Source of the DNA: a virus
Direction: 5' to 3' (one strand)
DNA: 57,988 nt
IMG/VR virus record: IMGVR_UViG_3300031965_000033
Span: 1-57,988 of that record
In this document: positions 14,749-48,490 of the stretch, in pieces
Position numbering within the stretch: the first letter of the stretch is position 1
Layout of the letters: every line of letters begins with the position of its first letter
Program-made: the position numbers and the translations under genes
The notes under the pieces: model-generated
The model's input: only the letters and a program-made list of their open reading frames with translations
What the model was told of the DNA's origin: nothing
Database searches by the model: none

Positions 14749-16974
14749 ATGAGCACACTATTTCAGTCGGCGCTTGCCGCACACGACGCTGGACTTTCGG
14801 TCGTTCCGATCATGAACGATGGCACCAAGCGCCCACCGTTCAAGTGGGGCGAGTACCAGACCGAACAGGCTGACATTGCGCTTGTGCGGACATGGTTCAA
14901 ACGCGGCGCGTACACCGGGTTCGCTTTGATCTGCGGTCCGGTTTCGAACAACCTCGAAGTGCTTGATTTTGACGATGCCGACACGTACGAGATGTTCTGC
15001 GACACCGCGGAGAGCCTCGGGTTAGACGATCTGGTCGACCGTCTTCGTGCTGGGTACGCGGAGCGGACTCCTTCGGGCGGTGTGCATCTTCCGTACTACT
15101 GCGAAACGATCTCGGGCAACACCAAGTTAGCGCGGCGCTCGGATAAAGAGGTTCTGATCGAGACACGCGGAATTGGCGGGTACTTCATCGCGGCGCCGTC
15201 CAACGGCTCGGTTCACCCGAACGGCGGCGCGTGGACGATCATCTCGGGCGGGCTGGATTCAATCGCCACTATTACCGCCGAAGAACGCGAACTCCTATTC
15301 CAACTGGCTCGATCGTTCGACCAGGTGCCTCCGGTGGACGCGCAGGATGATCCACGAGCGTCGACAACGCTCGTGGGTGGCCTACGTCCAGGTGACGACT
15401 TCAAGCAGCAACATGGGAGCGTTGGATCGTTTGCGTCGATCGTCGAGCCGCACGGGTGGAAGCTCACGCACCGGCGCGGCAACGTCGGGTACTTCCGGCG
15501 TCCGGGAAAAGACGACGGTTGGTCGGCCACGTTCAACCATGCGGACTCGGGTTTGTTCTACGTGTTTTCGAGTTCGACCGATTTCGAGGCTGAGCGGGGA
15601 TACAACCCGTTCAGTGTGTACGCGCTGCTCAACCACAAGGGAGATTTTAGGGAAGCGGCAACGGAGCTCGTCAAGAAGGGGTACGGGAAAAAGGCGTCCG
15701 TTAGTCTCGGGTCAGTCAAGGTTGGGAAGAAAACCGAAAAACAGCAGTCTCATTTGGCTGCTTTTAGGCCGACCGAACTTCCAGCGGAATCCGTGTATGG
15801 ATGGTTCGCGGAGTATTTGGATCATGTGGAGCCGACCACGGAATCCCCAAACTCGTTCCATATGGCCGCTGCGCTAACCATTGTTGGGGCGTGTATTGGT
15901 AAGCGCGTCGGACTGTTTCACGCTTCTGATCGGCTCTATCCGAACTTCTACACGCTTCTCATTGGGCCTTCGGGACGGTCACGCAAAGACACCGCGATCC
16001 GGCGGATGCTCGATATGTTTTATGCCATTCCGCCCAGGGGAGAACCGTTGATCGCGACACAGGTTCCGTTCCGAGTTGTACGTGATATCAGTTCTGCGGA
16101 AGGGCTAATCGCCACGGTCAAAGAGAATGCGAACACGGTGTTTTATACGTCTGAGTTTGCGAAGCTGATGAATAACGCGGGGCGTGAGAGTACGCGGAGT
16201 ATCGGACCGTTGATGATCGAAGCGTTCGATTGTCCTCCTTCTCTTCAGAACAATACCGTTGCCAGCATTGAGGACAAGAAGCCGAGGGAGGCGAAGGACC
16301 CGTTTGTTTCCGTTCTGTCTACGGTGCAGCCGGAAATCTTAGCGGAAGTGATTGGATCGCAGCAGCAATACAGCGGCTTCCTTAATAGATGGCTTCTCGT
16401 CGTGGGAGACGGGAAGGCCCCGAGGCCGAATCCTCCGCGGATCGATACCGATCGGTCATGGCGTCTTATTAGGCGTTTGATCGATACCATTCGCAGTTAT
16501 CCAGAAAATCACATCCTTGAATTCGATGATGACGCTGCGGACCGATGGTCAGAGTGGTACGTCGATTCTTATCCGACTGGGAATGAGTCAGCGCAAGAGG
16601 ACGCGATGGGAATCCGGCGCGGGACGATGGTGAAAAAGATTGCCCTCGTTCATGCGGTAACGGATTCGTCGAAGGTCGTCACACTGGATCACCTGAATCG
16701 CGGTATCGCATTTTCTGATTGGTCATGGCAGCACACGAAGCGTCTCCTTCCGATGTGGGGCGAAACCAAACATGCCGAGTTGGAGAGGAAGATTCTAGAG
16801 AATCTTACGGCAATCGGAAGTCCGACGAGGAAGCGAGAGATGCAGCGCAAAGTTGCGAGCAAATTGGGGCCAGGCGTGTTTGCCGGAATCGTCAAATCGA
16901 TGGTCGAAAACGACGATATCGTGGTGTTAGAGAACGGAACAATCGCGTTAAAGGAATGGATCGAACATGGCTGA
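14749..16974 (+). CDS. Bifunctional primase-polymerase (Prim-Pol) fused to a P-loop helicase-like domain
   Basis: N-terminus: AGLSVVPI..KRPPFKWGEYQ, LEVLDFDD (DxD), TPSGGVHLPYY. C-terminus: Walker A LIGPSGRSRKDT (DUF3987-like). Confidence 0.85.
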   Translation: MSTLFQSALAAHDAGLSVVPIMNDGTKRPPFKWGEYQTEQADIALVRTWFKRGAYTGFALICGPVSNNLEVLDFDDADTYEMFCDTAESLGLDDLVDRLRAGYAERTPSGGVHLPYYCETISGNTKLARRSDKEVLIETRGIGGYFIAAPSNGSVHPNGGAWTIISGGLDSIATITAEERELLFQLARSFDQVPPVDAQDDPRASTTLVGGLRPGDDFKQQHGSVGSFASIVEPHGWKLTHRRGNVGYFRRPGKDDGWSATFNHADSGLFYVFSSSTDFEAERGYNPFSVYALLNHKGDFREAATELVKKGYGKKASVSLGSVKVGKKTEKQQSHLAAFRPTELPAESVYGWFAEYLDHVEPTTESPNSFHMAAALTIVGACIGKRVGLFHASDRLYPNFYTLLIGPSGRSRKDTAIRRMLDMFYAIPPRGEPLIATQVPFRVVRDISSAEGLIATVKENANTVFYTSEFAKLMNNAGRESTRSIGPLMIEAFDCPPSLQNNTVASIEDKKPREAKDPFVSVLSTVQPEILAEVIGSQQQYSGFLNRWLLVVGDGKAPRPNPPRIDTDRSWRLIRRLIDTIRSYPENHILEFDDDAADRWSEWYVDSYPTGNESAQEDAMGIRRGTMVKKIALVHAVTDSSKVVTLDHLNRGIAFSDWSWQHTKRLLPMWGETKHAELERKILENLTAIGSPTRKREMQRKVASKLGPGVFAGIVKSMVENDDIVVLENGTIALKEWIEHG

Positions 16975-17204
16975 CAGTCAGAAGGTGTCAGAAAATGGCT
17001 TCTGACAGTGTTTATGGCGTATTTCCGGGAGAAACTGACCCAAAATCGGCGTTTGTCAGACTGTCTACCGATTTTGAAAAAGGAGTCGTAAAAAAAAGAT
17101 GTCTGACAGTCTGACAGGTGGTCATTTTGGTCGAGTTTATGGCGTATTTCCGGGAAGAAAACTGTCATCCGCAAAGTCTGACAAAGTTCTGACTGTCAGA
17201 AGGG
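16971..17204. repeat. Iteron cluster with AT-rich core (putative replication origin or operator array)
   Basis: At least 12 GTCAGA/TCTGAC-type hexamers. Includes ctgacNgtcagaagg at both edges (16971, 17190), tandem gtctgaca x2 (17101-17116), and the 21-bp direct repeat gtttatggcgtatttccggga (17010-17030, 17135-17155). AT-rich stretch at 17071-17100. Confidence 0.6.
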
Positions 17205-34053: not shown

Positions 34054-35772
34054 ATGTCCCGGACCTGGACCTCATTCCAATTCGCCAAACCCGATAAGCG
34101 ATCATCGGCCATGGTTGGCCTCTGGCTTGCGCCCGAACCAGCCGCAACGCTCGCGCTCGATGGTCAACTCCCACCCGACCAACTGCATATCACGCTCGCG
34201 ATCCTGGAGGCCGATGCCGCCAGCCTGAGCGACGTGCAGCAGGCGCGTTTCCTGACCACGGTTGACGATCTCGCGGCTTGGACCGCGCCGCTTTCCGGCG
34301 ATGTCGCGGGCATGGGCCGGTTCTACGCGTCGGACTCGAGCGACGGTCAAGACGTGCTCTTTGCGATTCCGAATGTCGAGGGCTTGGGAAAACTCCGGCA
34401 CCGGCTGTGCGAGAACCTTGGGTACGCGCAACTCCCGCACAAAGACGACTTCGAGTTCTTTCCGCACATTAGCCTCGCCTACGTCGCGTCCGGCGCCGAA
34501 TCGCCCGTGGCTGCCGTCGCAACGACTCCGCTCAGTTTCACCGCCCTGACCGTCGTCATGGGCGATCGGATGACCACCGTCCCCCTTCGTGGTTGGTCCG
34601 ACGGCGCGATGTCCTACGCCGATGCCGGGATCATCGGCGAGGGGCACCGCCTGTTCACCGAACTGCAAACCTACATCGAACCGCCTGAATGGCTTCCGCT
34701 CATGCCGGCCCCCGGCAACTACGTGCACCGCGACTACGGCACGGTCGATTTACCGGCGGATCGGATCGAACGGCTTGTGGCCAGCATCAATAACGGGGTC
34801 TATCAAAAGTCGATTCCGATCGATGTCTCGCACGACAAGGACGATCTCGACCTAAACGGCGGGCTCGGCTGGTTCGGCACTGCCCGCATCAATGCCGACG
34901 GCTCCGCCGATGTGCGGGTCGAATGGACGCCGCGTGGCACGGAAGCGCTGCTGGCGGATCGGTTCCGGTACGTCAGTCCGGAGTTCGCGCTCTCATGGAA
35001 AGACGAGGACGGTGTTGATCACGACGATGTCGTGCTTGGCCTGGCCCTCTGCACGAATCCCTTTTTCAAGGACCTCGCGATCGATCGTGCGCTCGTTGCG
35101 TCCGAGCGCGGCGCGTCCGTTTCCACGCTTTCTCTTGTTCATCAGTTTGGCGAGCCGGTGCGGTTCGTCGCGAAGGATCAGGCGCACCGCGCGCCGGAGG
35201 AAACACTCATGGCAGACGAGAAGCCAGCAGTTGCCCCCACGGCTCAGCAGTTCACGGAGTTGAGCCAATCGTTCAGCGATCTCAAGACGAGTTTCGGCGA
35301 GTTGCAGCAGAAGTTCACCGAGTCGGAGACGGCGCGCGAGACTGAGAAGACCGCACGCGAAGCCGCCGAAGCCAAAGCGACCGAAGCCGATGCCCGCATC
35401 CAGGCGATGGAAGACGCGAAGCGGCGCAAGGAATTCACGGACGAGGTTCTCGGTAAGTCGGACGCGAGCGGGATTCGCTGGTTCGGCAACGCCGATAACC
35501 ACATCAAAATCCTTGAATCCTTTACCGACGATGCGCTCCGGCAGACCTACATCGACGAACAACGTGAGAACGCGAAGCGGATGACGGCGGCCGCGATCAA
35601 GCCGGAGATTGGCAGTGATGCGCCGGGAGAGACCGACATTCAGTCTCAGTACAACGCCGAGGTCACGCGGGTAATGACGGAATCGAAGGTGTCCAAGGCG
35701 CAGGCAACCCGCACGGTGTTGCGTGAGAACCGGGAGCTCGCGGCCGCGGTTGCGGCTGGAAAGGTCAAGTAA
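34054..35772 (+). CDS. Fusion protein: 2H phosphoesterase (LigT-like) domain + Mu gpI-type prohead protease + coiled-coil scaffold
   Basis: Two HxT/S motifs (LHITLAIL, PHISLAYV) about 100 aa apart. Then IPIDVSHDKDD..GWFGTARINADGSADVRVEWTPRG..FRYVSPEF (Mu I-like). Then a long Glu/Lys/Ala-rich helical region. The start may be 34111. Confidence 0.8.
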   Translation: MSRTWTSFQFAKPDKRSSAMVGLWLAPEPAATLALDGQLPPDQLHITLAILEADAASLSDVQQARFLTTVDDLAAWTAPLSGDVAGMGRFYASDSSDGQDVLFAIPNVEGLGKLRHRLCENLGYAQLPHKDDFEFFPHISLAYVASGAESPVAAVATTPLSFTALTVVMGDRMTTVPLRGWSDGAMSYADAGIIGEGHRLFTELQTYIEPPEWLPLMPAPGNYVHRDYGTVDLPADRIERLVASINNGVYQKSIPIDVSHDKDDLDLNGGLGWFGTARINADGSADVRVEWTPRGTEALLADRFRYVSPEFALSWKDEDGVDHDDVVLGLALCTNPFFKDLAIDRALVASERGASVSTLSLVHQFGEPVRFVAKDQAHRAPEETLMADEKPAVAPTAQQFTELSQSFSDLKTSFGELQQKFTESETARETEKTAREAAEAKATEADARIQAMEDAKRRKEFTDEVLGKSDASGIRWFGNADNHIKILESFTDDALRQTYIDEQRENAKRMTAAAIKPEIGSDAPGETDIQSQYNAEVTRVMTESKVSKAQATRTVLRENRELAAAVAAGKVK

Positions 35773-36183: not shown

Positions 36184-37134
36184 ATGGCTCAGCCCACACT
36201 CAGTTCAGTCCATATCAATCAGCCTTTGACACAGATTAGCGTCGCGTATCTGCAATCGGTAGATCACTACATCGCGACGAAGGTCTTTCCGATCGTGCGC
36301 GTCGGTAAACGCACGGACAGCTACTTCATTTACACCAAAGACGATTGGCGTCGCGATGAGGCGAAGATTCGACCACCGGGAACCGAGTCCGCTGGCTCCG
36401 GCTACGGGCTCAGCACAGCGACCTATACCGCCGACGTGTTCGCGTTCCACAAGGATGTCGACGGGCAAACACTTGCCAACTCAGACGATCCGCTGCGACC
36501 GTACGAGGACGCGACAGAGTACGTCACCCAGCGCTTGCTGCTCCGGCAGGAAAAGCAATGGACGGCCGACGCATTCGTCACCGGCGTGTGGGGCACCTCG
36601 ACTACACCCTCCGCGCTGTGGAGCACCTATGCGACGTCGGTCCCGATCACCGATGTCGAAACCGCGAAACGCACCATCTTGATCAATACCGGCTTTATGC
36701 CGAATACGATGGTGGTCGGGTACGACACGTACATTCAACTGATCAACCATCCCGATATCGTTGACCGGCTGTCGAACCAGTCAGACCGAATTGTCAACGA
36801 AGGGAAGCTCGCCTCGATCTTCGGACTCCCGAACTTCTATATCGCCAAGGCCTCGGAAAATACCGCCGTTGAGGGCGAAACCGCGGTCAACGCCTTCGTC
36901 CAGGGCAAGCACGCCTGGGTCGGCTATGTTGCGCCGAATCCATCGCTGTTGACTCCGAGCGCGGGCTACACCTTCGTCTGGGATTCCGTCTCGGGCGGCA
37001 TCGGTGAGGACATCGCGATCATGCGGCTCGATATGCCGTGGATCGACAGTGTGCGGATCGAGGGGCAGCTTGCATTCGATAATAAGTTGGTCGCAACAGA
37101 TTTAGGTTACATGTTCGTTGATGTGGTCGCATGA
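36184..37134 (+). CDS. Major capsid protein (lambda E / Mu T-like, HK97 fold)
   Basis: 316 aa after the scaffold and decoration genes. GAAGGAG RBS. The N-terminal QPLTQISVAY..ATKVFP.V.V region resembles Phage_cap_E-type capsids. Confidence 0.85.
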   Translation: MAQPTLSSVHINQPLTQISVAYLQSVDHYIATKVFPIVRVGKRTDSYFIYTKDDWRRDEAKIRPPGTESAGSGYGLSTATYTADVFAFHKDVDGQTLANSDDPLRPYEDATEYVTQRLLLRQEKQWTADAFVTGVWGTSTTPSALWSTYATSVPITDVETAKRTILINTGFMPNTMVVGYDTYIQLINHPDIVDRLSNQSDRIVNEGKLASIFGLPNFYIAKASENTAVEGETAVNAFVQGKHAWVGYVAPNPSLLTPSAGYTFVWDSVSGGIGEDIAIMRLDMPWIDSVRIEGQLAFDNKLVATDLGYMFVDVVA

Positions 37135-40326: not shown

Positions 40327-40668
40327 ATGCCAGAGCCAGTCGTTATCTACACATTCACACCGCAATTCGAGGGCGCGTATTTGAAGGATGTGCCGAAGCG
40401 CGATTTGACCGCAGTCGACGTCGCCAACATGACCGGGGCGCAGATGCGCGATGCGTTCAGTCCGCATCCTGTCCACGGCACGCCGCTCTATACGCCGGTC
40501 GATCCATCGAGCGCGCCGGACTTTTCGCACGTCCATGAGGCGCCGATCGAGATCATCTCGGAAGAAGAGCAGGCGCAGCGCCGGGCAGCGGGCGCGGCCG
40601 AAGCCAAACGCAAAGCCGACGCCGCGAAAGCGACAACGAAAGACACGGGCAAGGACGGTGAATCATGA
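40327..40668 (+). CDS. Hypothetical protein
   Basis: 113 aa with a Lys/Ala-rich C-terminus. Confidence 0.55.
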   Translation: MPEPVVIYTFTPQFEGAYLKDVPKRDLTAVDVANMTGAQMRDAFSPHPVHGTPLYTPVDPSSAPDFSHVHEAPIEIISEEEQAQRRAAGAAEAKRKADAAKATTKDTGKDGES

Positions 40669-41909
40669 CGGTTCCAGTCGGACCTCCAAACTATCAGCAG
40701 CTCGTGCGGACGCAGGTCGGCGTTGAAACCATCCGCGGCACCTCCGTCACCAAAACCAACAAGTGGTACGGTCGCCTGGCCTTGACCCGCCGTCAGCCTC
40801 TGGCCGATTCCGAGGACTTCGACGGCTCGTTCTTCGGTGACGTCGAGCCGGTCCGTGGCGCGATGATGGTCGACGGCACGTACTACCAGCCGATGGCGTA
40901 CGAGGATGTCCATCTGTTGCGCTACGCCGTCAAAGGCGGGGTGACGCCGGTGACCGATGGCGAGACGACGCCGGGTTATCTCAGCACCTTCCGCCACACC
41001 GGCAGCCGCGATGATCTCGATACCGCTTCGATCGAGTACGGCACGCCGGAGATGATCTGGGCGTGCAACGGGATCATGTTCCCGGAGTTCACATTTTCGA
41101 GCGATATCGACGATCCGCAGGCAGTGTGGAAATTCAACGCTCGCGCGATCGGACTCTCAAAGGACCTGAAGGCCGGACTCGATGACGTCGCCGCAACGTC
41201 CGGCACAACCACCACGTTCGTCAAAACCGCGTGGGGCTTGACGGGCTCCGCACACGTTGGCGCATGGATTCATGTCAAGAGCGGTACCGCCGGCAATATC
41301 GGGCTGTGGCGCGAAGTCACAGCCAATGACACCACGTCGTTAACCTTTGCCGCGCTGCCGTCTGCCGTGGCGTCTGGCGATGTGATCGACGTCTATCCGG
41401 TTTTCACAGCCGCTGTCGCCGATCGCGCACGTGAGAAGATCATCGGGCCGGGGACGAAACTTTACCTAGATCCGCTAGGCGGCACGATCGGAACGACTGA
41501 GATCACCGGGCGCTTTATTTCCTGGAGTGTCACGAGCCAGATCAACGCTGCCTACAAGCGCTTCCAGGACAATGTCGCCACAATGTCGAACCGGGTCGAT
41601 CGCGGCACGATCCGGATGACGGGTCAGGTGGTGCTGGAATTCGACCGCAAGGCCGAATGGGATCTGTACAAGGCGATGACGCCGAGCTTGATTCGCATCG
41701 AGCAAACCGGCACGACGATCGACGCCGGCGCCGGTACGACCAAGAGCGCGACGATCGATCTTTACCGTGCGGTATTCGATGATCCCACAGAAACAATACG
41801 TGGCAACAATGTTATCGCCACGTGGCCATTTAGAGCGTACAAATCCGTTGCTGAGTCTGTTTACGGAGAGTACGCGCTGAAGACAACCGCAGCGGCATTG
41901 CTGGCCTAA
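40665..41909 (+). CDS. Major tail protein (putative)
   Basis: ATGA overlap. At 414 aa, the largest gene between the connectors and the chaperones. Confidence 0.5.
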   Translation: MTVPVGPPNYQQLVRTQVGVETIRGTSVTKTNKWYGRLALTRRQPLADSEDFDGSFFGDVEPVRGAMMVDGTYYQPMAYEDVHLLRYAVKGGVTPVTDGETTPGYLSTFRHTGSRDDLDTASIEYGTPEMIWACNGIMFPEFTFSSDIDDPQAVWKFNARAIGLSKDLKAGLDDVAATSGTTTTFVKTAWGLTGSAHVGAWIHVKSGTAGNIGLWREVTANDTTSLTFAALPSAVASGDVIDVYPVFTAAVADRAREKIIGPGTKLYLDPLGGTIGTTEITGRFISWSVTSQINAAYKRFQDNVATMSNRVDRGTIRMTGQVVLEFDRKAEWDLYKAMTPSLIRIEQTGTTIDAGAGTTKSATIDLYRAVFDDPTETIRGNNVIATWPFRAYKSVAESVYGEYALKTTAAALLA

Positions 41910-41912
41910 TCG

Positions 41913-42215
41913 ATGAGCTCATCCCCGCTCACCTGCCGGTGCGGCCGCATCCTGGCGACGAGGCACCACGGTGGGCGGGTGCATGTCTGTGAGCGGATCG
42001 GGGTCGTACTGGAGCCGACGGGGCAGTTCGGGCCGTTCGCGCGGTTGACGTGTGTGTGCGGGGCAGCACGGAACGTGACGATGGCGCGGGGATCGGCTAC
42101 GCCGGGGGATCGGGACTTGCGTTTACGCGATCTATCCAGTCCGCGATCCGTTCAGGATGATACAACCGGACATCTGTCAGTCGATCAAAGATCCCCGGAT
42201 GTGCCGCACGCATAA
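41913..42215 (+). CDS. Possible zinc-ribbon protein
   Basis: The N-terminal half has CRCG...HVCE...CVCG. The 3' 118 nt overlap the convergent gene 42097..42429. Confidence 0.35.
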   Translation: MSSSPLTCRCGRILATRHHGGRVHVCERIGVVLEPTGQFGPFARLTCVCGAARNVTMARGSATPGDRDLRLRDLSSPRSVQDDTTGHLSVDQRSPDVPHA

Positions 42216-42429
42216 CAGTCAACTCACGGCAATTGGTCAATCGTCTAGCGTCTTCCCACTTTTCAATCCAGCGACCTCCGCGAGATCGCACCACAAGCCG
42301 GACGCGATCCCCGGCATTGCCGACGTTGAATCCGCAGATGTACGCCTTCGCTCCAACAGATGCGACGTTGGTTGCCTCTGCATAGTTGCAGGCGATGGCG
42401 CGGACCTCGTCCGTATTCGGTTCGCTCAT
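42097..42429 (-). CDS. Hypothetical protein (island operon gene 4)
   Basis: ATGA-coupled to the upstream gene; 110 aa. Confidence 0.6.
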   Translation of the reverse strand: MSEPNTDEVRAIACNYAEATNVASVGAKAYICGFNVGNAGDRVRLVVRSRGGRWIEKWEDARRLTNCRELTVMRAAHPGIFDRLTDVRLYHPERIADWIDRVNASPDPPA

Positions 42430-42608
42430 TCCTCATCCTCGTTGAGTTCTTGGATTCGACTCAAAGCAACCGCGTTGCGAAGACGACGTATGAGACTTGC
42501 CTCAACGTCGGTGATTGATTCGATTGCGAGTTGCTGGAGGTGGTCCCATAGCCATGCGGCATCCTGGTTCTCAAACGTTACGACACGGACGGTTTGGTTC
42601 TCTCTCAT
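42426..42608 (-). CDS. Hypothetical protein (island operon gene 3)
   Basis: ATGA-coupled on both sides; 60 aa with an acidic tail. Confidence 0.55.
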   Translation of the reverse strand: MRENQTVRVVTFENQDAAWLWDHLQQLAIESITDVEASLIRRLRNAVALSRIQELNEDEE

Positions 42609-43141
42609 TTATCATCCTCCGGCGTCAACTCCCGTGGCTCGACACCGAGCGGCGTCTTCTTCCGGCCGCGTCCTGGAATAAGCAGCGCCGAGATAATCCT
42701 AACGTCACGATCATCAAACACGAGTAAGCGGGCACCGATCTGCGAACCGAGCCCGTGCTTCGCGGCTAGCTTGCGAACGTGAGCGGCTGAGATGCCCAGC
42801 CGCTCCGCTACCTCTTGGGTAGTGATTGGGACAGTCGGGCCCGATGCTAGTTGAGTTGGCCGCGAAAGATTGACGATGGTATCCCCGCGCTCTCGAAGGC
42901 GATCCATCCATTCAGCTTCGGAACCAATGAGATCATAAGCGTGCTTGATTTCCTCGAGGCATTCGAAGGAGAAGGTAGACGGCCCGTCTTCAGTCCAAGC
43001 GTTCTGAAGATGTTCGTTGTAATGACTCTTTCTCTTCAATAGGGCGCGATGATTCGAAAACCGAGACTCAATGTTGATACTACTGCCGACATAGGCAATT
43101 CCTCGGCCTACACTTCGAACGGCATATACCCCTATCGTCAT
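42605..43141 (-). CDS. GIY-YIG nuclease with C-terminal helix-turn-helix
   Basis: GVYAVRSVGRGIAYVGSSINIESRFSNH..HYNEHLQNAW (GIY...YIG...R...N). C-terminal ITTQEVAERLGISAAHVRKLA. Confidence 0.85.
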   Translation of the reverse strand: MTIGVYAVRSVGRGIAYVGSSINIESRFSNHRALLKRKSHYNEHLQNAWTEDGPSTFSFECLEEIKHAYDLIGSEAEWMDRLRERGDTIVNLSRPTQLASGPTVPITTQEVAERLGISAAHVRKLAAKHGLGSQIGARLLVFDDRDVRIISALLIPGRGRKKTPLGVEPRELTPEDDK

Positions 43142-43317
43142 TTGATCCCCATCTCCTTCCGTACTCGTTCAATCTCTGTTGGATCGAACCGCCGATATCC
43201 GCTCAGTAATTTAATCATCGGAACCTTGCCGGCGTCGGCCCACGTCCGCAATGTCGTTGGGTGAACTCCAAGCCGTCGGGCCGCTTGAGCGATCGTCAAG
43301 AGTTTCGATTCTGCCAT
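43138..43317 (-). CDS. Excisionase/MerR-type HTH DNA-binding protein
   Basis: ATG 43317 lies 6 nt after AGGAGGG. LLTIAQAARRLGVHPTTLRTWADAGKVP. The ORF opens at 43596, but that part is upstream of the promoter. Confidence 0.8.
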   Translation of the reverse strand: MAESKLLTIAQAARRLGVHPTTLRTWADAGKVPMIKLLSGYRRFDPTEIERVRKEMGIK

Positions 43318-43336
43318 CTCGTACCCTCCTGCGCTC

Positions 43337-43365
43337 ATCATACCAAAATAGAACGACTTTAGCAA
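43337..43365 (-). promoter_or_regulatory. Leftward island promoter TTGCTA-17-TATGAT
   Basis: On the minus strand, ttgcta (43365-43360), 17-nt spacer, tatgat (43342-43337). Confidence 0.6.
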
Positions 43366-43371
43366 GAACGC

Positions 43372-43400
43372 TTGACTTTTACAGTAGACTTTGATAGACT
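43372..43400 (+). promoter_or_regulatory. Rightward island promoter TTGACT-17-TAGACT with GACTTT repeats
   Basis: ttgact at 43372-43377 and tagact at 43395-43400. GACTTT occurs at 43355, 43374, 43387 and 43397. Confidence 0.6.
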
Positions 43401-43437
43401 TTAGACATTGAATCGGACGACAGAAACGGAGACGGAC

Positions 43438-43629
43438 ATGACACAGGCTGAGATGAGAATCGAAAACATGAAGCACCTGACCGATGCGGACCTGGTCAAG
43501 CGAGCCCTGACCGACGATCACACGAGCGCATACCGCAGCAACCACTACATCTCTTCCCCGACCAACCTGTACCGAGCGGAGTTGCAGCGGCGACAAGCGG
43601 TCGCCGCAACGGAATTGGTGGCCGCGTGA
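43438..43629 (+). CDS. Hypothetical protein (island, rightward gene 1)
   Basis: ATG 43438 after GGAGACGG (the ORF opens at TTG 43408). Confidence 0.5.
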   Translation: MTQAEMRIENMKHLTDADLVKRALTDDHTSAYRSNHYISSPTNLYRAELQRRQAVAATELVAA

Positions 43630-43883
43630 TGGTGACCTTGACGAGCAAGCTCTACAAAGGACTCGAGTGGTCGACGGATCGCGCGGAAGGCGTGACCTCG
43701 ATCGAGCACGCGGCGCGAATGTTGGCGCGGTGGACGGCGATGTATGCGCGGCCGGAAGCGATCCAGGCCGGAGCCGATGCCAAGTTCTGGTTCCGGCGGG
43801 ATGATTACAATTTATTAGTAACCGTACAGAATGTGTCCATTGACGATCTACGAGCGGCGTACCGGCAACTCCGCGCGTCGTGA
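43626..43883 (+). CDS. Hypothetical protein (island, rightward gene 2)
   Basis: GTGA overlap; 85 aa. Confidence 0.55.
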   Translation: MMVTLTSKLYKGLEWSTDRAEGVTSIEHAARMLARWTAMYARPEAIQAGADAKFWFRRDDYNLLVTVQNVSIDDLRAAYRQLRAS

Positions 43884-44006
43884 GCGCTTGTCATGACGAT
43901 TTGATCCCGCGCTTCTCCGCTAATTCGCGTATCAAAATCTCCAGCATCGCCGTCTTATCGACGCCTTGCCTTTCCGCCATTTGAGCTCATCAAAACGCTG
44001 GAAGAC

Positions 44007-44531
44007 TTGGAGTACGACATTCCCGCCGAGGCCACGCACGAGGAAATCCTTGAAGCCATCAAGAAAGTCGCAGCTCAGCGGAACGGCAATACCTTCCGGC
44101 GCAACGAAGACGGATTGTTCCTGAGCGGCTACCAGATCAAAGCCATGCTGAAAGAAGCAACCGCGATCATGTTCCCCGGCGGCAACGGCGACGGAACGCA
44201 CAAGTGGGGAATCACGAGAAAAGCGCCGCGCTCGTATCTTGCGGAACGTGTGTTTGTGGACGAATTAGCGGTGCCACTCGGACGCACGGAACCGGACGGA
44301 ACGCACCTACAGATCGGACAAGTCAAGAGTCCGAAAGGGCAACGGTCCACGCTGACCTATGTGGATTATTGCGAGCAACCGACAATATCGTTCACGATTT
44401 CATCTGCGCAAGACTGCATCGATCGCACGAAGTGGACGGAGATTTTTGTGTTGAGCCAGCGGCTGGGACTTGGGGCGTTGCGGTCGATGGGCTACGGTAC
44501 ATTCAAAGTAACGGCATTTGATAAGGCATGA
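44007..44531 (+). CDS. RAMP-like protein (Cas6/Cas7-type glycine-rich loop); function unknown
   Basis: C-terminal GLGALRSMGYGTF fits the GhGxxxxxGhG loop of RAMP proteins. N-terminal LSGYQIKAMLKEA resembles the [ST]xhKGxhR motif. TTG start is uncertain. Confidence 0.5.
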   Translation: MEYDIPAEATHEEILEAIKKVAAQRNGNTFRRNEDGLFLSGYQIKAMLKEATAIMFPGGNGDGTHKWGITRKAPRSYLAERVFVDELAVPLGRTEPDGTHLQIGQVKSPKGQRSTLTYVDYCEQPTISFTISSAQDCIDRTKWTEIFVLSQRLGLGALRSMGYGTFKVTAFDKA

Positions 44532-45005
44532 CGCGGTTGAGACCGCTACACGAATCGACCGCCCGAACCCGCGTTGATCAGTTCGTCTCGCGTCACCGCG
44601 ACTACCCTTCACCTTTCGGCACTTGTCATCTCAGTTCGCACCGACGGTTCCAGTTCCTTCTCGACGAATCGACGTTTCGTAACGGAGCCATTCTGTGCGC
44701 CCCGACGTACCGTGACGGTCCCAGGCTTTGCGAATCGACTATCCGCTACCGTTCCCCTCGTCTCGTCTCGACTACTCTATTCGTGACTTATCGACACAAG
44801 CCGACGTGACTGTACCGCCCAGGTCTCGACTGGCCAAATCCGAGTATACCGACTACCCGCTACTGCACCCCTCGTCTTATTTCGACGAGACTGGTCGACT
44901 CACCCTGAGCCATGACCTGACGCACCGACTAGCCGCCACGCGACTCTTCTTTCCCCCGCGACGGGGCATAACGATGTGACATCGTGACCGCTTGCGGCCA
45001 GGGAG
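44532..45005 (+). other. C-rich, strand-asymmetric CGAC-repeat tract (probably untranslated RNA)
   Basis: 17 CGAC on the plus strand against 1 GTCG. Hand count over 44581-44940: A65 C132 G77 T86. Degenerate 100-137-bp repeats (CGACTAYCC at 44599, 44736, 44849). All three forward frames are partly open, and no ORF looks protein-like. Confidence 0.55.
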
Positions 45006-45059
45006 CGCCTAGTGTGGTAGACTGACCCTCAGCAAACCAAAAACATGGTGGACGTACGG

Positions 45060-45104
45060 GCCGCCGGTGGACTCGCTGTAATCGCGAGTTGCCGGCGGCT
45101 TTTT
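45060..45104 (+). terminator. Strong intrinsic terminator closing the island
   Basis: gccgccgg...actcgc-tgtaatc-gcgagt...ccggcggc (8 + 6 bp) followed by TTTTT. Confidence 0.85.
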
Positions 45105-45126
45105 CGTATTACCCAAAGGATCAACG

Positions 45127-46054: not shown

Positions 46055-48490
46055 ATGAGCGATAAAGTCGAGATCAAGATAACAGGAACTAACCAGGCCG
46101 GTCCTGCATTTCGACAGGTTACGTCAGATGCCCAAACAATGGGGCGATCAATCGACGAAACCGGGCGGCGCTCCGCTCAGTCGCTACAAAACATCAACCA
46201 ACGAGCGGCCGCGTTGGGTGCTGCGATCGGTGGCGCAACACTCCTCATGGGCGAGTTTACCCGTGCCGCCGCTGAGGACGAAGCAAGCCAAGCACGGGTT
46301 GAACAAGCCATCCAGAACACCGGCGACGCACTGGATGACTATTCCGCCAAGCTCGACATCGCCATCAAAAAAGGCCAAGAAAAAGCATTCTCCGACGACG
46401 ATACCCGCGACGCACTGACGAAACTAATCGGCGTTACCAACGATACTGGCCTGGCGATGGACAATCTCGGGCTGGTTATGGACTTTGCGCGAGCGCGGGG
46501 TATTAGCCTCGCGACATCTGCCGACATCATCGGGAAGGTGATGGGCGGCAACCTCGGAATTCTTTCCAGGTACGGAATCGTGCTTGGCGAGAACGCCACT
46601 AAAGAGGAAGCGCTCGCACTCATTCAGCAACGATCGGCGGGGCAGGCGGCAACCTATGCGGAAACTTCACTCGGTCAACTCGACATCTATAAGGACAAAC
46701 TCGGTGAACTGACCGAAGGGTGGGGCGCTCACGCCGGGGCGATGCAGTCCGTGCTGCTCATGTTGCCGGGACTACGTGCTGGATACATTGCGCTAGCGGG
46801 CGCGATCGGTGGACTCGGCGGGCTCGGGGCGCTCGCCGGGATTGCCGTTCCAGCCGCCTTAGTTGCGGGCGGCGCATCACTCGCGTACGGCTACAACCAG
46901 GATACGATTGGCGAGACGGCGACTAATACCTTTTGGAATAACTTTTTCCTAAAAGGCTCCCAGGTCATGAACGCCCTGCTTCCGGGCGATCCATATGACG
47001 TTCAGAAGTATCGCGAGCAGCTCCTTGAGAATGAACGCGGGGCACTCATCAACACCGGACTCCTAGCTCCAGGCGAAGACCAGTCGGTTGTTTGGGATCG
47101 CATTGCCGCGCTCACTGGAACGATCACCGGCGAGATGAGCACGCGAGAGCTCATTGATCATGTCGTACGGCTTTCAACTGGTCAGGGCCTGACGATTCCG
47201 CAATGGGTTTCGCAGACAGCGGGGGCGCGGGCTGACTGGATTCAAGACCCGATCACTGGCGTCAATATGCCGAGATCGGAATACAGTCGCTACAACAGCC
47301 AACGTCTTATTGGGTCCGGGATGTATCCGACAACTGGGGTCGGGCTCAGCGCGGGCTACGTTGGCCCATTGCCTCGCCCAGACCCGTACGGCGGGCAAGG
47401 TATCTATAACCCGTTCCAGTACGATTTCGCGAAGTACAACGCACAGGTCGGGTCACGGTTTGGCACGGAGCCGGCCTATAGCGCGTATGGCACCGGCGGC
47501 ACGGGTGCCATCGCCAATACGCTAAGCGGCGCGGGTGCGGCTCCGATTGTGCTCTCACAGGCCAATCAAGACATTGCTAATGCCGCCAACGCGGCCGCCT
47601 ACACCGCCGCGCTCGAAGAGCAGTACGGCGCGTACGCTCGACTGATCGAGGGGATTGACGGCGCAAGGGGAGCGGCTTCTGCGTACAAAGCGGTTCAGGA
47701 TGGGCTACTTGGAGACCAGGAAGTTTACAACCATCAATTAGGCGAATTCGGCGGTGTTCAGTCCGATCTCACGGCTGGCTATGAGATCCTTTTAGAACGG
47801 CAAGCGGCGGGGCAAAAACTCACTAAAGAAGAACAAAGCTTGCTCGACAACTACCCTGCGCTGTATGCGCGAATCAGCGGTGCTGTAGACGACGCGACGG
47901 TTTCCAATGCGCTGATCGCCGCATCCTATATCGAAAACATGAAACAGAGTGATGCTTGGAAGTCATCACTCGATGACACCAATGGATCACTTGGCAGCCT
48001 GAACGAGACCCTTCAACTCTTCATTCTCAGTCTCGAAGGCGTGCCTGAAGAAGTCCGTACGAGAATCTACCTCGACAACATCTCGCTTGCGCTTCAGGAC
48101 ATCGAGACGTTCAAGTCTCTACTCGACAGCGTGCCGCCTTCCGTCGCGACCACACTCTATCTGACGTATCAGGACTACATCCCAGGCGGCGTTGGCTCTC
48201 CGTTCCTACACGGTGGCATTCCCAGGTACGCCAATGGCGGCATTCCGATTTACGCGGGCGAAGCGGGTCCTGAGTTGATGAGCTTTGCGAACGGCGGTTC
48301 CGCGATGGCGATGACGCCGGGTATTTACACCGTGCCCCAGAACACCCATATCACCCCCGCCCCCGCGTCCAGGGGGCGGATGAGCGGCGGTGGCGGGAAC
48401 ATCATCGTGCAGGGCGATCTCCACCTGCATATGAGCGATCCCAACGTCTATGCGGCTGTCCGTGAATCCGCGATCGGCGGTTCGCGATGA
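46055..48490 (+). CDS. Tape measure protein
   Basis: 811 aa, Ala/Gly-rich helical with hydrophobic segments, downstream of the G/GT chaperones. Confidence 0.9.
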   Translation: MSDKVEIKITGTNQAGPAFRQVTSDAQTMGRSIDETGRRSAQSLQNINQRAAALGAAIGGATLLMGEFTRAAAEDEASQARVEQAIQNTGDALDDYSAKLDIAIKKGQEKAFSDDDTRDALTKLIGVTNDTGLAMDNLGLVMDFARARGISLATSADIIGKVMGGNLGILSRYGIVLGENATKEEALALIQQRSAGQAATYAETSLGQLDIYKDKLGELTEGWGAHAGAMQSVLLMLPGLRAGYIALAGAIGGLGGLGALAGIAVPAALVAGGASLAYGYNQDTIGETATNTFWNNFFLKGSQVMNALLPGDPYDVQKYREQLLENERGALINTGLLAPGEDQSVVWDRIAALTGTITGEMSTRELIDHVVRLSTGQGLTIPQWVSQTAGARADWIQDPITGVNMPRSEYSRYNSQRLIGSGMYPTTGVGLSAGYVGPLPRPDPYGGQGIYNPFQYDFAKYNAQVGSRFGTEPAYSAYGTGGTGAIANTLSGAGAAPIVLSQANQDIANAANAAAYTAALEEQYGAYARLIEGIDGARGAASAYKAVQDGLLGDQEVYNHQLGEFGGVQSDLTAGYEILLERQAAGQKLTKEEQSLLDNYPALYARISGAVDDATVSNALIAASYIENMKQSDAWKSSLDDTNGSLGSLNETLQLFILSLEGVPEEVRTRIYLDNISLALQDIETFKSLLDSVPPSVATTLYLTYQDYIPGGVGSPFLHGGIPRYANGGIPIYAGEAGPELMSFANGGSAMAMTPGIYTVPQNTHITPAPASRGRMSGGGGNIIVQGDLHLHMSDPNVYAAVRESAIGGSR

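Follow-up and report, generated by a model that had tools for sequence, protein, structure and literature searches.

A damaged VIPR-like locus with a 5'-truncated Cas7-like RAMP gene and an intact pentanucleotide repeat array between the tail genes of a phage genome

The viral contig analysed here (57,988 nt in full, hereafter the window) carries a 5'-truncated gene of which about two thirds of a vipr-like frame, coding for a Cas7-like minimal RAMP, survives at 43983-44531 (+). The remnant corresponds to approximately residues 58-239 of full-length relatives and is followed by an array of 12 contiguous, vrRNA-like direct-repeat units at 44556-44991. The array is intact, and such arrays are tightly linked to the genes across the family. 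Judged by its architecture, the locus appears to be a new, damaged member of the recently described VIPR kind, and we regard a degraded VIPR locus as the probable explanation of the feature.

VIPR (Viral Interference Programmable Repeat), described in June 2026, consists of a minimal RAMP gene (vipr), an accessory gene (vap) and vrRNAs, which contain 9-16 YNNGG pentads and a conserved 3' tail, with NNNGG, YNNNG and NNNNG as variants (bioRxiv 10.64898/2026.04.26.720920). Seven types have been reported, mostly phage-encoded; the variable bases bind dsDNA with a one-base skip and the genes of competing phages are repressed (10.64898/2026.04.26.720920). For type II only, the vrRNAs were reported to be expressed and to co-purify with Vipr, and DNA was reported to be bound according to the one-nucleotide-skip rule; VIPR was also proposed to be older than CRISPR (10.64898/2026.04.26.720920).

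The callable open reading frame inside the remnant, 44007-44531 (+), begins with TTG, encodes 174 aa and ends in ...QRLGLGALRSMGYGTFKVTAFDKA. The preliminary description had taken it for a complete product; the frame and its glycine-rich C-terminus are real, whereas the start is not that of the gene. In tblastn searches, full-length homologues align from 43983/43986 onward, upstream of the TTG, and there the homology ends. The in-frame codons 5' of the TTG read ...FELIKTLED in the window, and homology breaks before them; across the position of the assumed start, the nearest full-length relative, P0002 (88% identical), has the sequence ...ELRAMLIKTLEDLEYDIPAE. The N-terminal ~58 codons were not found anywhere in the window, a 58-kb stretch that comprises the entire contig (tblastn with five full-length relatives, word size 2, E up to 10). 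An in-frame stop is located at 43902-43904, and the TTG is the sole in-frame start downstream of it. In addition, the SD-like GGAAG is misplaced, sitting just 2 nt 5' of the TTG.

Within the retained part, the remnant is free of stops and frameshifts. Of the residues that an alignment of 85 full-length members shows to be invariant, all 13 in this part are kept in the window, the dN/dS of the remnant against its closest relative, L001, is ~0.04, and the remnant branch is not longer. The remnant is thus undecayed, and therefore either the truncation is recent or the remnant is still constrained; the low dN/dS could predate a recent truncation. Over 8,525 nt at the locus, the window does not differ from a second assembly (ENA, 58,002 bp; 100% identity). 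Because this independent assembly is identical, the truncated locus is no assembly artefact.

The comparison with L001 points to how the 5' part of the gene was lost. Two blocks were found with blastn: L001 3724-4263 matches window 43985-44524 with 78% identity, and L001 2179-2626 matches window 43864-43423 in inverted orientation with 77% identity. The sequence between them in L001 (2627-3723), containing an intergenic region, a small HTH gene, a ~198-aa upstream gene and RAMP codons 1-58, is missing from the window. L001 shows the order two small genes (-), promoter region, HTH (+), partner (+) and RAMP gene (+), whereas the window shows GIY-YIG endonuclease (-), HTH (-), a promoter-like pair, two small genes (+), a junction of ~100 nt and the truncated RAMP gene (+). 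This difference corresponds to an inversion combined with a deletion beside the GIY-YIG homing endonuclease gene. The rearrangement junction (43884-43982) has no counterpart in L001, as the blastn blocks stop at 43864 and resume at 43985.

The two small genes (43408-43883, +; ~63-73 aa and 84-85 aa) are inverted relative to L001, and the gene calls in L048 agree with them. In L001 they lie on the opposite strand, 5' of the HTH-vap-vipr operon, and in the window they read into the vipr remnant. No terminator was predicted between them and the remnant, which appears to be co-transcribed with them. A candidate divergent sigma-70-like promoter pair, recognised by consensus matches only, is located at 43337-43400 between the HTH gene (-) and the small genes (+). 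The ORF at 43138-43596 (-) has a MerR/HTH_17 DNA-binding domain in its C-terminal ~60 aa (Pfam HTH_17 6.7e-10, MerR 2.1e-9), and its counterpart in L001 is the small HTH gene on the + strand before the partner (L001 2729-2935, HTH_17 5e-11). The GIY-YIG homing endonuclease gene (42605-43141, -; PHROG homing endonuclease 1.6e-13, Pfam GIY-YIG 1.1e-7), which has an HTH_17 domain at its C-terminus, directly adjoins the rearranged block and is ~850 nt 5' of the homology break. It is plausible that the homing endonuclease caused the rearrangement via break repair.

All these genes belong to an accessory cassette of ~3.2 kb (41910-45126), whose edges were placed by synteny and whose GC content is slightly below that of the flanks. 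On one side the cassette is flanked by a putative major tail protein gene (40665-41909) and on the other by the genes for the tail chaperone and the tape measure (from 45127; tape measure 46055-48490); the major head protein gene is located at 36184-37134 (PHROG 9e-76). Searches of viral and metagenome contig collections gave no relatives of the 414-aa tail protein through which the edges of the cassette could be mapped. A 62-nt non-coding patch at 45047-45107, 5' of the gene for the 167-aa putative tail chaperone, is 82% identical to positions 12185-12243 of L002, where it is located 5' of the gene preceding the large terminase in a region otherwise unrelated to the window; this shared patch may be a regulatory element. 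Farther upstream in the window, the 572-aa protein encoded at 34054-35772 (+) joins an N-terminal RNA-ligase PHROG match (5.6e-22) to a head-maturation-protease region, which is an unusual fusion. A Pfam match to the 2'-5' RNA ligase superfamily among the window ORFs may concern the same protein.

The 174-aa ORF alone matched nothing in Pfam, PHROGs and NCBIfam, and phmmer gave nothing significant against PDB sequences. PADLOC gave weak matches to residues 105-169, all of them to RAMPs (Cmr6, E=0.002; type IV Cas5, 0.0044; Csm4, 0.03). A search of 5.8 billion proteins retrieved 129 homologues of the ORF, nearly all of 230-260 aa (~240) and with a query coverage of 99-100%; their extra ~58-65 residues are N-terminal. 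The whole family comprises 1,503 clusters at 50% identity (E<=1e-3), mostly metagenomic, and no genuine short form was found among them. Four candidates for a conserved short isoform were rejected: P0041, P0048 and P0275 are cut off by contig edges at their starts, and in P0269, which is of full length, the start was called late. The truncation in the window is unique so far.

An alignment of the 85 full-length members was used for an AlphaFold2 model of P0002, which has a pLDDT of 90 and a pTM of 0.82 and contains a single RRM. With this model, the best 50 Foldseek matches in the PDB are all Cas7-type RAMP subunits (Cmr-beta, Csm3, type VII Cas7 and Cas7-11 domains), with E values of 1e-6 to 5e-5, TM scores of 0.42-0.57 and alignments over the whole length. 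The modelled family can therefore be described with confidence as a Cas7-like RAMP. The sequence profiles are in line with this result, as weak RAMP matches recur across the 85 members: 54 match Csm4, and others match Cas6, Cmr6 and Csm3. Moreover, the family profile finds Csm4 chains as its best PDB sequence matches, aligned on the glycine-rich loop, so that GLGALRSxGYG is a genuine RAMP glycine-rich loop as first proposed. In BFVD, three significant viral matches were found, one of which is labelled 'Cas system-associated RAMP superfamily protein'.

The model also shows what the window copy has lost. The strand 16-25 and the helix 37-49, the first of the RRM core, both fall in the missing part, whereas the glycine-rich loop and a thumb-like hairpin, for which the long hairpin 163-188 is the candidate, are kept in the remnant. 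In RRM topology the first strand forms the centre of the sheet. Because this central strand is absent, the 174-aa product is unlikely to fold, and the remnant protein is probably inactive. The RRM-like fold that had been suggested for the ORF thus holds for the full-length family, whereas the window copy lacks its first strand and helix. The motif LSGYQIKAMLKEA, previously regarded as N-terminal, belongs to an internal helix of the model, at residues 106-120 of the full-length protein.

The proposed likeness to Cas6e did not hold either, since the predicted fold resembles Cas7/Csm3. The Cas6 profile is matched weakly by 12 of the 85 members (best E 9e-4), only at the glycine-rich loop, and no Cas6 structure is present among the best 50 Foldseek PDB matches; the family has a single RRM, unlike the two-RRM fold of Cas6-like proteins. 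The absence of other cas genes was borne out in a Pfam scan of the window ORFs, on which this statement rests: none of 75 matches a Cas family at E<=1e-5. The matches listed in a PADLOC scan of all these ORFs were methyltransferase models. A CRISPR array is likewise missing, as Rfam gave no match and the only close direct repeat in the window is a perfect 21-nt pair (GTTTATGGCGTATTTCCGGGA; 17010-17030 and 17135-17155, 125 nt apart). This pair lies just 3' of a 741-aa gene (14749-16974) for a putative Prim-Pol/DUF3987 protein and may be an origin or a regulatory site.

Two further family members outside the window deserve mention. P0135 (610 aa) contains an intein-like insertion with a LAGLIDADG domain (Pfam 3.7e-8) in the conserved ERWG-K/TKKGPK loop of the RAMP. 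The Microcystis phage Mae-JY09 (L010; PP395641.1, 37174-38976) is the only GenBank phage with a family homologue (38% identity); the partner, the RAMP gene and ~6 array units are located at the extreme right end of its linear record, all annotated as hypothetical.

A partner gene lies directly 5' of the RAMP gene in 41 of 45 other loci, and the partner stop often overlaps the RAMP gene start. Among 31 deduplicated related loci, the partner is the sole conserved neighbour of the RAMP gene. It encodes a mostly helical protein of ~170-225 aa, typically ~190 aa. No partner gene was found in the window. The contexts of the family loci vary, and most are placed at the end of the replication module, past DnaB/primase and ahead of the structural genes. 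Pfam returned nothing for eight partner proteins; the partner model, built from just eight usable sequences, reached a pLDDT of 59.5, and Foldseek gave no match for it (best E=1.2, lambda P loader, probability 0.05). A Cas11-like role for the partner is a conjecture by analogy.

The array occupies the ORF-free tract 3' of the remnant. Its units measure, in order, 43, 43, 28, 33, 33, 33, 33, 48, 33, 43, 33 and 33 nt. On the + strand, each consists of a CGAC(TAnCC) tag followed by C at each fifth base; on the - strand the same units read (NNNNG)n and end in ...(TA)GTCG. The lattice C is present at 72 of 80 positions against a background of 0.37 (p=5e-23). Autocorrelation gives z values of 5.7 at lag 5 and 6.5 at lag 33, and the array has the strongest 5-nt periodicity of the 58-kb window. 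BLAST conservation of the tract with L001 is limited to a single 39-nt patch (window 44927-44965, L001 4526-4564, 90%; AGCCGCCACGCGACTCTTCTTTCCCCCGCGAC), which spans the second-to-last unit. The remaining units differ wholly from L001, so that composition and lattice, not sequence, are conserved.

The same design is present across the family, in which the array is linked to the RAMP gene, confirming the downstream co-occurrence that had been considered at the outset. The tag CGAC[T/C]AnCC occurs in up to 15-21 copies 3' of the gene, compared with roughly 0.1-0.6 per kb elsewhere, and the unit spacings are quantised at 28/33/38/43 nt. In a tag-anchored profile of 185 units from 23 loci, C occupies +13/+18/+23/+28/+33 in 95/90/88/85/77% of cases against a background of 45%, and the bases between the lattice positions are unconstrained. 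The tract has no 3-nt coding periodicity. Read on the sense strand, it often begins at the RAMP stop codon, and in most family loci no other segment is as strongly skewed toward C over G. The lattice was detected by motif-anchored and autocorrelation analyses; tract-wide Fourier tests for a 5-nt periodicity were mostly not significant because the phase shifts by 3 nt at each unit.

The linkage is also visible from the DNA pattern. A scan of 2.9 million viral contigs that used only the DNA pattern of two neighbouring units yielded 29 stretches, and 21 of them recover module genes (18 carry the RAMP gene and three further ones the partner). In some loci the array is placed between the partner and the RAMP gene. 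Several separate pentad arrays or gene-less arrays were seen on one 90.8-kb viral contig (L065, L075 and L077) and in L051, L066, L069 and L076, where the absence of the RAMP and partner genes refers to the stored stretch around the array; this suggests orphan or multi-array configurations.

The likeness to VIPR lies in the architecture, on which the proposed membership is based. The family encodes a small phage-borne RAMP with one RRM core, a glycine-rich loop and a thumb-like hairpin, accompanied at family level by one adjacent accessory gene, which the window copy lacks. The window has neither a CRISPR array nor other cas genes, as expected of VIPR, and the flanking non-coding pentanucleotide arrays show fixed and hypervariable positions and a short conserved tag as the candidate cap. 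The window array displays at least four tandem pentads with fixed and hypervariable positions, the pattern by which VIPR repeats are recognised. Like the cassette in the window, VIPR cassettes in LittleE and phiHSIC also reside within structural modules.

Other features differ. The window has lost the N-terminus of the RAMP and does not encode an intact Vipr. The reference type II locus of Escherichia phage phiSUSP1, which we confirmed in sequence, has the order vipr-vap, whereas here the accessory gene precedes the RAMP gene. Each pentad has one strongly fixed base here (NNNNG/GgSNN type) instead of GGY, and the lattice base is C on the sense strand of the gene. To fit the G-type, 3'-capped pentad design, the window array would have to be transcribed antisense to the gene, whereas the SUSP1 arrays are sense; the - strand is accordingly the predicted RNA strand. 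Moreover, the units are contiguous and short (28-48 nt, 4-8 pentads), unlike the ~100 nt and 9-16 repeats of type II, and the GTCG-type cap falls far short of the structured type II tail in length. With hhalign, the family (A1) aligned with the single sequence of SUSP1 Vipr over 58 columns at a non-significant E of 0.034, and the profile-profile comparison with five type II members covered 125 colinear columns, also without significance (E=0.18). The partner has no similarity to vap1.

Homologues of the SUSP1-type Vipr are present in cultured actinobacteriophages, namely Mycobacterium phage LittleE (gp33-gp34; L082) and Gordonia phages (L081 and L083), and in a marine vibriophage, Listonella phage phiHSIC (ORF22; L084). 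Long G-lattice tracts lie alongside these genes, which are annotated as hypothetical and located within tail or head-neck modules.

Other RNA-guided systems resemble the locus in part. Cas7 of type III and type VII (Csm3, Cmr4/Cmr6 and Cas7-11 domains) gives the best whole-length structural match (Foldseek E ~1e-6); it shares the glycine-rich loop that joins the last helix and the last strand, and binding of RNA as a repeating lattice would by analogy be expected for the family too. The window, however, lacks Cas10, Cas5, Cas11, Cas6 and a CRISPR array, and the periodicity in the family is 5 nt and sequence-specific, whereas that of Cas7 is 6 nt and sequence-independent. Unlike Csm3/Cmr4, the family has no invariant acidic residue after strand 1, as judged from the alignment and not from residue-wise superposition: the invariant residues there are G31, G32 and P34, with no invariant Asp or Glu. 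In type IV-B Csf, a filament of the Cas7-like Csf2 with a small helical subunit forms on non-CRISPR RNA (PMC7937560). This system likewise combines a minimal RAMP with a helical partner on mobile elements and has no nuclease or adaptation genes, but it possesses Cas5 (Csf3) and Cas11 and has no dedicated repeat array. Partial RNA-guided systems on mobile elements are also represented by orphan repeat RNAs (solitary repeat units) and by 'biomimicry' anti-CRISPRs, in which phages encode an inactivated Cas9 and a tracrRNA (PMC10910872). The window, too, has an array but probably no working protein. In contrast to the anti-CRISPRs, it gives no sign of interference with host CRISPR, and its state would stem from rearrangement and not from design.

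In the explanation that we favour, the intact unit of the relatives comprises a ~190-aa helical vap-like protein, a ~240-aa vipr-like RAMP and a non-coding array, whose units are runs of pentanucleotides with one fixed base per pentad and a fixed tag as the cap. As published for VIPR type II, Vipr subunits would assemble on the pentad RNA with the protein holding the fixed bases, and the variable bases would pair with dsDNA by a one-base skip, repressing genes of competitor phages. In the window, an inversion and a deletion next to the GIY-YIG endonuclease gene removed the accessory gene and RAMP codons 1-58 and left an open but headless frame of 174 codons with a poor start signal, and the 12-unit array came along intact. 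With its headless frame and poor start signal, the remnant most likely yields no active protein. For the array, either a relic state or a function in trans is conceivable.

The preliminary description had envisaged an intact stand-alone RAMP that binds or processes RNA or sequesters host crRNA or Cas components. The open and undecayed frame with its dN/dS of ~0.04, the complete set of retained invariant residues, the glycine-rich loop and thumb-like hairpin, and the two same-strand genes 5' without a predicted terminator would suit such a protein; given the absence of decay and the apparent co-transcription, some residual function of the remnant is conceivable. The gene is nevertheless truncated at its 5' end, lacking residues 1-58 with the long central strand and the helix, starts from TTG with a misplaced SD, has no genuine short counterpart in the 1,503 clusters and is deprived of the partner found in 41 of 45 loci, and its low dN/dS may be inherited from before a recent truncation. 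Moreover, the known system that it matches, VIPR, acts by RNA-guided DNA binding between phages and not by processing its own RNA or sequestering host components (bioRxiv 10.64898/2026.04.26.720920). A functional shortened RAMP is hence improbable. An equally small likelihood attaches to the tract being a cis-acting element with the RAMP as its binding protein, either a Rho-utilisation-like terminator masked by both proteins as an early-to-late switch or a set of origin iterons. The location of most modules after DnaB/primase and before the structural genes, together with the C-skew and the frequent start of the tract at the stop codon, is compatible with such an element. However, unit lengths step by 5 nt, and because such a step equals half a DNA turn, it argues against phased dsDNA sites; moreover, one fixed base per pentad with a fixed cap and a hypervariable remainder is the published vrRNA design. 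In addition, the array sequence differs even between 78%-identical relatives with the lattice kept, as expected of guides and not of a terminator or origin, and arrays also occur between the two genes and in extra copies on one contig.

A gene split by an intron or similar insertion, with an N-terminal part that is encoded at another site and linked to the rest as RNA or as protein, can effectively be dismissed, as the window contains neither an N-terminal segment (tblastn, E up to 10) nor an intron family (no group I or II intron in Rfam). The GIY-YIG endonuclease gene near the break fits a split gene, and the P0135 intein indicates that mobile insertions do occur in the RAMP gene; the endonuclease and HTH genes, however, lie on the opposite strand and the flanking block is inverted relative to L001. 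Somewhat different readings within the VIPR framework also seem unlikely, though worth stating. The locus could be an orphan guide array relying on a trans-supplied Vipr, in which case the 12-unit array would still be transcribed and load onto Vipr from phages infecting the same cell or from resident prophages. Another option is that the headless RAMP fragment acts as an anti-VIPR that caps or poisons the Vipr filaments of a competitor. More broadly, the family could represent a VIPR type with antisense, contiguous and ultra-short (4-8 pentad) guides beyond the seven types of the preprint.

The degraded VIPR locus proposed here would amount to an independent rediscovery, from sequence only, of the VIPR hallmarks, namely the minimal RAMP, the accessory gene and the pentad-coded array, in a large family (~1,500 clusters at 50% identity) that sequence search does not link to the characterised SUSP1 clade. 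For annotation, ORF 44007-44531 is best treated as a truncated vipr-like pseudogene and not as a functional Cas-like protein. The window would further illustrate how VIPR loci decay and move, with a rearrangement beside a homing endonuclease gene, residence in a tail-gene module and an array that outlives its protein. It thereby raises the question of whether orphan guide arrays work with Vipr in trans; since some satellites have their own vrRNAs, the preprint hints that a trans-supplied Vipr can serve orphan arrays (10.64898/2026.04.26.720920).
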